Source: a virus (lineage: Duplodnaviria > Heunggongvirae > Uroviricota > Caudoviricetes). Taken from it: a DNA stretch of 31,163 bases. Each line of letters opens with the position of its first letter. Position 1 is the first letter of the stretch. Below are positions 15,268 through 16,313 of this stretch, one piece after another. Made by a program: the position numbers and the translations under genes. The stretch is from the IMG/VR virus record IMGVR_UViG_2541047775_000006; one strand, 5' to 3'. Below the pieces are notes generated by a model, which saw only the letters and a list, made by a program, of their open reading frames with translations, was not told the DNA's origin and made no database searches.

Positions 15268-15981
15268 TCAATAATCAAGCCCTTGCCTGGATACATATCT
15301 GTCTGGCGGGAAGCCATAATAGCGGTGAAATACAGAAATAAAGTAGGACCTGCTTGAATAACCGCATTTTTCTGCTATAGCCTGTCCATATCCATGCCGG
15401 GAACATAACATATTTACAGCAACACGCATCCGCTCTTCCAGCAACAAGCGACTGAACATGCCCCCTTCATTTTTCAGTTTTGTCTTTAACAAACTCTCAC
15501 TCATATGCAACTGTAGAGCAATCGCACCAAGCGTCCAGCTTGCTGATATATCTGTCTGAATTATCGCCCTGACTTTGGCACTTATGCTGGATAAACATCC
15601 ACTTAAAAACAATGACATCCGTTCATCTGTTTCAAACAGAGACAGGCAGGCCATCATAAGAAACATATCCGTGGCCTCTCCGGAAAATCCCTGGCTGGTA
15701 ATTAAAGCCGCAGCCAACGCAGGATTGTTGGGTTCCAGCAACAGGTAAAGCGGAATGTCAGTCAGACGAGTCCTCGTCAGCTTATGCTGACTTTCCAGAT
15801 ATTGACTTACGACGGATTCGCTTATATCGACAATTTTAACTTTGCCATAATGCATAAGGAAAAGCTCCCTGATGCATTTGGTGGCCAGAACAACTGAGCC
15901 TGGCTTAAGTGACAACGTATCCTTTTCAAGAAAAATATTAATTGGGGAGCAAACCATGATAACTGAACAGACAACAGCCAT
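15268..15981 (-). CDS. AraC-family transcriptional regulator, AppY/EnvY-like (AT-rich moron)
   Basis: 237 aa; C-terminal AraC-type HTH (AIAEKCGYSSRSYFISVFHRYYGFPPDRY). N-terminus MAVVCSV... resembles what I recall of AppY. Markedly AT-rich relative to neighbours. Confidence 0.75.
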   Translation of the reverse strand: MAVVCSVIMVCSPINIFLEKDTLSLKPGSVVLATKCIRELFLMHYGKVKIVDISESVVSQYLESQHKLTRTRLTDIPLYLLLEPNNPALAAALITSQGFSGEATDMFLMMACLSLFETDERMSLFLSGCLSSISAKVRAIIQTDISASWTLGAIALQLHMSESLLKTKLKNEGGMFSRLLLEERMRVAVNMLCSRHGYGQAIAEKCGYSSRSYFISVFHRYYGFPPDRYVSRQGLDY

Positions 15982-16043
15982 TATAATTTTACTTTCATTA
16001 GCAATTGGTTAGCTCAATTATAGCCCTAAAAGGTAAATTATCA

Positions 16044-16313
16044 TCAACACATAAGCAAAGGACTGACAGGTGTCGCTCCCCCACCAGCCGCCCATTCACC
16101 ACAAATAAAAAGCCTTAAGGACTGAAGGCGTCTGTAACAACCGCACTGATAGTCTGCCAGACCCGCCATAACAAGCTGGGTCAGTATTAACTGGCAGCGT
16201 TCGCGTGAAAGGTAAGTATTCTGCGCAATCTCCCCGACTGTCGCCGGTTCGGTAACGCTTAATTCATCAAACACAACTCTGGCGGTTTCTGTCATATCCT
16301 GCTGTTTCAGCAT
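16044..16313 (-). CDS. hypothetical small protein (possible winged-helix)
   Basis: 89-aa ORF between Q and the AraC-like gene; weak SD. Confidence 0.4.
   Translation of the reverse strand: MLKQQDMTETARVVFDELSVTEPATVGEIAQNTYLSRERCQLILTQLVMAGLADYQCGCYRRLQSLRLFICGEWAAGGGATPVSPLLMC

Follow-up and report, generated by a model that had tools for sequence, protein, structure and literature searches.

The stretch of DNA analysed here (the window; 31,163 nucleotides, IMG/VR record IMGVR_UViG_2541047775_000006) has the content of a lambdoid prophage and extends from a tail gene as far as the integrase; its positions 1-21573 are 99.93% identical to a prophage adjoining yecE in Escherichia coli NZ_CM185152, whose RefSeq annotation we transferred to the window with an offset of 801. 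The subject of this report is a gene for a 237-amino-acid (aa) regulator of the AraC family that lies between the Q antiterminator and the holin on the late-gene (minus) strand. With high confidence we identify it as an orthologue of PsrB (prophage-encoded secretion regulator B), known from enterohaemorrhagic E. coli, that is carried as lysogenic-conversion cargo.

The regulator locus

An earlier note on this DNA had described two open reading frames (ORFs), of 237 and 89 aa, and had placed them between Q and the lysis genes. Both ORFs are present on the minus strand, at 15268-15981 and 16044-16313, and matches to Phage_antitermQ and Phage_holin_2_1 flank the regulator gene. A DUF968 gene and Q precede the regulator in gene order and have higher coordinates; the holin is followed by a YdfR-like (DUF1327) gene, lysozyme and Rz, all on the minus strand according to Pfam and RefSeq. 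The main features are these:

15268..15981, minus: psrB-type gene encoding a 237-aa AraC/XylS regulator; intact ORF, product 98.7% identical to WP_000301797.1, Pfam matches
15244..16044, minus: psr cassette, 801 bp, 41.6% guanine plus cytosine (GC), bounded by blastn breakpoints against methyltransferase-type relatives
16531..16926, minus: Q antiterminator; Pfam Phage_antitermQ 1.6e-52, phrog_79, ORF taken from the TTG at 16926
14333..14548, minus: class II, P21-type holin, with which the lysis genes begin and the slot ends; Pfam Phage_holin_2_1 2.5e-35, RefSeq

The RefSeq call for Q in the 99.9%-identical prophage, 16531-16911, is shorter than the TTG-started ORF.

An AraC/XylS regulator with both helix-turn-helix motifs

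The earlier note took the 237-aa product for an AraC-family protein, and profile searches bear this out. Pfam HTH_AraC matches in two stretches at 50.3 bits (cut-off 26.6) and HTH_18 matches at 39.8 bits (cut-off 33.6) over profile positions 2-78 of 80, the DNA-binding matches together spanning residues 155-230. The integrity of the AraC helix-turn-helix (HTH), which the earlier note had left to careful alignment, is now clear: both motifs are present, and the DNA-binding domain structure of GadX (3mkl) aligns with residues 134-233 at E = 7e-19. The window protein thus has the C-terminal DNA-binding domain of about 100 aa with two HTH motifs that characterizes AraC/XylS regulators. In a multiple alignment of the window protein with PsrB, PatE, GadW, YdeO, AppY and GadX, residues W149, R184, G207, Y208, F214, G223 and P226 are invariant across the window protein, GadW, GadX, YdeO, AppY and PatE. 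At the other end of the protein, an N-terminal CSV motif is common to the window protein, GadW, YdeO, AppY and PatE, and because this motif is conserved we favour the 237-aa start over the 195-aa start of some older annotations.

The AlphaFold model of the window protein, built on a shallow alignment of 12 sequences, is of low confidence (mean predicted local distance difference test score, pLDDT, 62.8; predicted TM-score, pTM, 0.40). It places beta strands at residues 5-53, followed by helices, with a helical C-terminal half, and its best fold matches in the PDB are full-length Rns, CsvR and ToxT together with the GadX domain, at TM-scores of merely 0.28-0.30. Given the pLDDT, the fold search supports the family class and nothing finer.

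The closest described relative is PsrB

Three prophage-borne AraC regulators are described in O157:H7 EDL933, namely PatE (z0321, OI-8), PsrA (z1789, OI-50) and PsrB (z2104, OI-57), the last placed within OI-57 at coordinates 1849324-1929825 (PMC10877973, PMC8565820). Examining positions 1845000-1919999 of the EDL933 assembly NZ_CP008957 for AraC genes, we found a single one, at 1905274-1905987, encoding the 237-aa protein WP_000301797.1. The window protein is identical to it at 234/237 residues (98.7%), differing by A103V, H196Y and I202V, and the two genes differ by 6 nucleotides. The gene thus has two attributes of the Psr family, close identity to the EDL933 PsrB and location on a prophage.

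Other AraC proteins are more distant. In pairwise BLASTP, the homologue in phage phiSTEC1575-Stx2k is 91.6% identical to the window protein over its full length; PatE (37%), GadW (35%), YdeO (31%) and AppY (29%, E = 6e-34) also align at full length, and GadX, EnvY and AdiY (32-41%) align over the C-terminal domain only, GadX reaching 41% over its DNA-binding domain and EnvY being limited to window-protein residues 96-233. NCBIfam yields sub-threshold matches alone, the best being YdeO (108.5 bits against a cut-off of 348), with GadX at 87 against 500; no AppY or EnvY model is among the NCBIfam matches of the window protein. The earlier note had called the regulator AppY/EnvY-like. With AppY at 29%, EnvY matching at its C terminus only, the NCBIfam equivalog cut-offs unmet and PsrB at 98.7%, we reject orthology to either protein.

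According to reviews, PsrA (z1789) is encoded on OI-50/CP-933N and is 90% identical to PsrB. In a tblastn search of the OI-50 stretch of the current EDL933 assembly (NZ_CP008957.1 1626570-1673884) no AraC-like sequence was found; a second O157 psr copy (psrA) was sought in EDL933, and the two O157 matches are both the psrB copy only. No psr cassette was found in the Q-lysis slots of the OI-71 and OI-79 prophages, where tRNAs are present. As a separate observation, the OI-50 prophage of EDL933 carries Q followed by a TerB pseudogene, with no 65-aa ORF, psr or tRNAs.

An exchangeable cassette in the late operon

To either side of the regulator gene the window has the late-region backbone of Shiga toxin (Stx) phages. 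The neighbouring features are:

16044..16313, minus: 89-aa ORF, equal to a 65-aa ORF plus 24 codons; nucleotide alignment with five related loci
16116..16313, minus: conserved 65-aa backbone ORF including its usual stop position; phrog_331, 6e-37
15164..15239, minus: transfer RNA (tRNA) with anticodon CAT; ARAGORN, Rfam; mostly tRNA-Ile in RefSeq, ileZ in phiP27
15081..15157, minus: tRNA-Arg (TCG); ARAGORN, Rfam
14990..15066, minus: tRNA-Arg (TCT); ARAGORN, Rfam
14714..14913, minus: STnc100-family small RNA (sRNA), full-length match; Rfam RF02076, 140 bits against a gathering score of 47

The earlier note made no mention of the three tRNA genes (14990-15239) or of the STnc100 match (14714-14913) within the slot.

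Edges of the cassette were obtained by blastn of the slot against five relatives. Homology to the Stx2a phage EH2201, to phiP27 and to the first EDL933 OI-57 prophage breaks off at 16045 and picks up again at 15241-15243. Between the same breakpoints EH2201 has about 1.17 kb, and each of the three relatives has a 1059-bp DNA methyltransferase as its annotated gene at this place. By comparison, the loci of psr type (EDL933 psrB and phiSTEC1575-Stx2k) stay collinear with the window between about 16411-16461 and 14949. The cassette itself consists of 62 bp of AT-rich upstream DNA (25.8% GC), the regulator gene and 24 bp downstream; no flanking repeats or insertion signature were found at its edges. 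In two further EDL933 prophages the tRNAs follow Q directly, with neither a psr nor a methyltransferase cassette. These alignments suggest that in Stx-type phages the psr and DNA-methyltransferase cassettes are mutually exclusive occupants of one site between the 65-aa ORF and tRNA-Ile. Since relatives carry a methyltransferase or nothing there, the psr gene appears dispensable for late-gene and tRNA function. Viewed as a possible phage moron, it is dispensable and exchangeable and lies in a cassette of 41.6% GC; the promoter-like site described below is not enriched over chance, and no terminator precedes the tRNAs.

The base composition agrees in part with the earlier note, which had ascribed to both ORFs a GC content much lower than that of flanking phage genes. 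At 43.8% GC the psr gene falls below the mean of the window, 49.6% (z = -1.5), a value as low or lower being found in 10% of equal-length segments, and the 801-bp cassette lies at the 3rd percentile among segments of its own length. The 89-aa ORF has 50.4% GC. The GC minimum of the window, about 38.5%, is near 25.4-26.5 kb, in the early, immunity-side region and not at psr, and GC skew, which the earlier note had proposed to examine, shows nothing distinctive over the locus. "AT-rich" is a fair description of the cassette; "much lower GC than flanking phage genes" is overstated.

The 89-aa ORF, which the earlier note counted as cargo, belongs instead to the phage backbone. A 65-aa ORF downstream of Q is conserved in many Stx-type phages, among them phiP27, the Stx2a phage EH2201 and both EDL933 OI-57 prophages, and its canonical TGA, retained in five relatives, reads TTA in the window (16116-16118, minus strand), so that the 24 extra residues are read from former spacer sequence. 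RefSeq treats the 89-aa ORF as a pseudogene in the 99.9%-identical prophage. We therefore reject it as cargo or as a partner regulator: the whole ORF has homology in phages without psr, and its 24 additional codons stem from the TGA-to-TTA change. The usual TGA forms part of a hairpin loop, with a U tract after the hairpin, and the change weakens this terminator-like hairpin from -10.6 (canonical) to -6.2 kcal/mol (window). The RefSeq label TrmB, applied to the 65-aa ORF in phiP27, is matched at 17.0-17.8 bits, under the cut-off of 25.6, which amounts to a weak winged-helix resemblance only; phrog_331, to which the ORF belongs, is a family of unknown function.

Downstream, the CAT tRNA begins 28 nt after the psr stop codon. 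The STnc100 match occupies the interval between the phage tRNAs and the holin where related phages have stx, TerB or nanS, and it ends with a strong hairpin and U tract (-21 kcal/mol). By blastn against relatives, stx, TerB and nanS are all missing from the tRNA-to-holin stretch of the window, which retains just short pieces of such regions, and the window is without toxin genes.

Elsewhere in the same prophage lies a gene of a family linked to psr in the literature:

19794..20288, minus: PerC-family (Pch-like) transcriptional activator gene; Pfam PerC 6.2e-09, phrog_1324

Psr genes are also associated with type III secretion effector loci on their prophage; no effector gene is present within the window, which stops inside the tail genes, before the usual effector region. 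In the early region, near a gene for a Rha-family phage regulatory protein, Rfam places a C4 antisense RNA (21823-21910, minus, 75 bits) and an isrK Hfq-binding RNA (21932-22008, minus, 62 bits).

Promoter- and terminator-like signals around the cassette

Three signals in the slot bear on how the regulator gene might be transcribed:

16017..16044, minus: sigma-70 promoter-like sequence, ATGATA-16 nt-TATAAT; consensus scan, 10/12 matches
16437..16468, minus: hairpin AAACCCGC-CACTGA-GCGGGTTT with U tract; read from the sequence, -13.8 kcal/mol
14959..14974, minus: terminator-like hairpin with U tract after the third tRNA; scan, -10.3 kcal/mol

The promoter-like site stands at the upstream edge of the cassette, 36 nt ahead of the start codon, and its TATAAT is identical in the EDL933 and Stx2k-phage copies. 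About 70-90 nt past the Q stop lies the AAACCCGC-CACTGA-GCGGGTTT hairpin, a candidate late-leader terminator (tR'-like). The scan shows an enrichment of terminator-like sites in the slot, with 9 where 3.1 +/- 1.6 are expected, and their multiplicity after Q is as expected of a late-operon leader; such hairpins also lie between Q and the regulator gene. The scan finds no terminator between psr and the tRNAs, the next being at 14974-14959, and this hairpin may mark the end of a psr-tRNA transcription unit.

In Stx phages the late promoter pR' is constitutively active yet terminated in lysogens (PMC7547250). A consensus scan for pR' between Q and the first hairpin found no promoter, and the leader as a whole folds no better than shuffled sequences (z = -0.56). 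A sub-threshold Rfam match to STnc130 between Q and the ORF (28 bits against 55) was dismissed, with no other named leader sRNA there.

Comparison with related loci

The EDL933 psrB locus shares its order with the window (antiterminator, 65-aa ORF, regulator, tRNA-Ile and tRNA-Arg, with the holin further on), and in both cases a PerC-family gene is found on the prophage. The two loci differ in detail. Q is of the Phage_antitermQ type in the window, whereas EDL933 has a DUF1133-type antiterminator-like protein; the window has three tRNAs and EDL933 two; the window lacks the TerB, DUF3927 and nanS genes that precede the holin in EDL933 and has the STnc100 sRNA instead; and the 65-aa ORF reads through to 89 aa in the window. 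PsrA, compared here by its description in reviews only, and the Psr variants of about 91-92% identity in Stx2k-type phages belong to the same family. In phiSTEC1575-Stx2k the 91.6%-identical protein is encoded in the same cassette site, and stx2 follows the tRNAs there, unlike in the window.

The late slot of Stx phages (Q, pR'/tR', methylase, ileZ-argN-argO, stxAB, lysis) has the same backbone as the window; over the part that comprises Q, the leader, the 65-aa ORF and the tRNAs, the window DNA is 92-93% identical to that of the Stx2a phage EH2201. Against that template, psr takes the place of the methyltransferase, and the position of stx is taken by short remnants and STnc100.

More remote regulators were compared as well. 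PatE (z0321, OI-8/CP-933H) is prophage-borne and of the same GadW/YdeO-like subgroup, with 37% identity only, and is reported in a review to activate gadE and hdeAB. It lies outside the Q-lysis slot in CP-933H, whereas the PatE-like gp67 of phage 1H12 (39%) lies between Q and the holin. The chromosomal acid-resistance regulators GadW, YdeO and GadX and the DLP12 protein AppY are homologous to the window protein and all converge on gadE; they nonetheless fall below orthology thresholds, occupy other genomic locations and, as far as is known, respond to different input signals.

Two observations on other phages concern the same slot. In phiSTEC1575-Stx2k (6067-6780) and in several draft-genome contigs, the tRNAs and the stx2 A and B genes come directly after a psr allele of 91-92% identity; regulator and toxin share the late-operon slot in those Stx2k-type phages. 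A literature search combining Stx2k with AraC or prophage returned no description of this psr-tRNA-stx2 arrangement. In lambda-like phages (1H12 and the Lambda_ev series), a 243-aa AraC regulator lies between Q and the holin beside Blc-like and YbgA-like cargo, and the regulator of phage 1H12 (NC_049947.1 3501-4232) shares 53% identity with PatE and 39% with the window protein. Together, the PatE-like gene in the Q-holin interval of 1H12 and the psr alleles indicate that the slot recurrently hosts this regulator class.

Discussion

What the regulator would do in a lysogen can be drawn from what is published on PsrB. At the hdeA promoter PsrB binds between -132 and -45, and it also binds the gadE promoter, with higher glutamate-dependent acid resistance (AR2) as the result; PsrA and PsrB both raise GadE and YhiF, which repress the operons of the enterocyte effacement locus (LEE) and hence type III secretion (PMC10877973, PMC8565820, PMC4456613, PMC8147483). 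Reviews add that PsrB induction improves passage through the mouse stomach, that phenotypes are published for psrA deletion and for psrB induction, and that psr genes are associated with Pch regulators, an association that the PerC/Pch-family gene on the same prophage would fit. By analogy with PsrB at 98.7% identity, we suggest that the C-terminal double HTH of the window regulator would bind the gadE and hdeA promoters and raise AR2, and that the elevated GadE and YhiF would then repress the type III secretion operons of LEE in LEE-carrying strains. The earlier note had anticipated that the regulator could rewire host acid or anaerobic stress regulons. The acid half of that proposal agrees with the acid resistance published for PsrB (PMC10877973, PMC8565820, PMC8147483); for the anaerobic half, the cited reviews mention no anaerobic-regulon targets of Psr proteins.

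As to expression, our best guess is that the promoter-like site of the cassette would drive the gene in a lysogen, possibly together with the three tRNAs, and that after induction Q-antiterminated read-through from the late promoter would transcribe psr as well. We infer this read-through from the position of the gene, on the late strand and within the Q-holin interval; both routes, via Q or via the promoter-like site, are putative readings of the sequence. Late control by Q, as the earlier note had it, is thus put forward on position; the cassette in addition has a promoter-like site, and terminator-like hairpins stand between Q and psr.

Several points weigh against, or narrow, the identification with PsrB and the function carried over from it. 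The EDL933 gene is equated with z2104 through the OI-57 coordinates given in a review, and the final ~10 kb of that island (1920000-1929825) lie outside the stretch examined. Two of the three substitutions, H196Y and I202V, fall in the DNA-binding half of the protein, neither in an invariant column. The low-confidence AlphaFold model says nothing on the N-terminal domain beyond secondary structure. Promoter binding and activity of the window copy are assumed by analogy with PsrB, whose function is taken here from reviews rather than from the primary papers. Promoter-like sites in the region number 3 against a shuffle expectation of 3.7, so that the candidate promoter is not above chance. Lastly, depending on the GAD island and LEE background of the host, the type III secretion branch may be irrelevant in the strain from which the window derives.

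Of the other explanations, we regard as quite unlikely the one closest to the earlier note, namely a Q-controlled, AppY/EnvY-like regulator acting to rewire the regulons of anaerobic or acid stress. AppY is itself a prophage-borne AraC regulator that activates gadE (PMC10057817), it aligns with the window protein at full length (29%, E = 6e-34) and shares its CSV motif, and the window gene does sit between Q and the holin; yet PsrB at 98.7%, PatE at 37%, GadW at 35% and YdeO at 31% all exceed it in identity, EnvY and AdiY match the C-terminal domain only, the NCBIfam cut-offs for YdeO and GadX are far off with AppY and EnvY models not among the matches, AppY is located at the far end of DLP12 and outside the Q-lysis slot, and the cited reviews mention no anaerobic Psr targets.

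More doubtful still is a regulator that serves the phage, for example by acting on the adjacent tRNA genes, on late genes or on toxin expression in Stx phages. The position of the gene, 28 nt upstream of the tRNA cluster and inside the late operon, would suit such a role, as would the 91-92% homologue directly upstream of the tRNAs and stx2 in phiSTEC1575-Stx2k and draft contigs, but the site holds a methyltransferase or nothing in relatives, two EDL933 prophages passing from Q straight to the tRNAs, which makes the gene dispensable, and the published PsrB targets are chromosomal. We give equally little credence to a silent, decaying cargo gene that is silenced by H-NS and without effect on the cell. 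The cassette does have a lower GC content (41.6%) than the sequence around it, the stop codon of the adjacent 65-aa ORF is lost and no strong promoter is evident. Against decay, however, the frame is intact, and the cassette occurs in 726/5426 complete E. coli genomes, usually in two copies, with at least 99% identity in 595 of them; the exact window protein is present on at least 1000 contigs. The dN/dS ratio (nonsynonymous to synonymous substitution rates) is likewise low between diverged alleles, about 0.21 against the 92%-identical variant, which indicates purifying selection, and the phenotypes of psrA deletion and psrB induction described in reviews also speak for an active gene. A PsrB orthologue acting on the host remains the reading that we prefer.

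One further possibility is that read-through by Q couples Psr production to prophage induction, the cassette being inside the late operon. We consider this improbable, though less so than the three other explanations above, and found no description in the literature of a regulatory link between prophage induction and Psr. If it were true, then in Stx2k-type phages, with the cassette immediately before the tRNAs and stx2, an SOS-induced subpopulation would raise acid resistance and shut off type III secretion while making toxin and phage.

The regulator is a member of a described family and the feature as such is already known; it opens no new question. What our analysis adds in a small way are the exact edges of the cassette, the observation that it and a methyltransferase cassette take each other's place, and the finding of close psr alleles directly upstream of stx2 in some Stx phages. 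The assignment is also useful for strain annotation, RefSeq labelling the gene merely as a "helix-turn-helix domain-containing protein" in hundreds of genomes. For the host, it means that this prophage very probably confers the effects of PsrB, namely more glutamate-dependent acid resistance and, in LEE-positive strains, less type III secretion.

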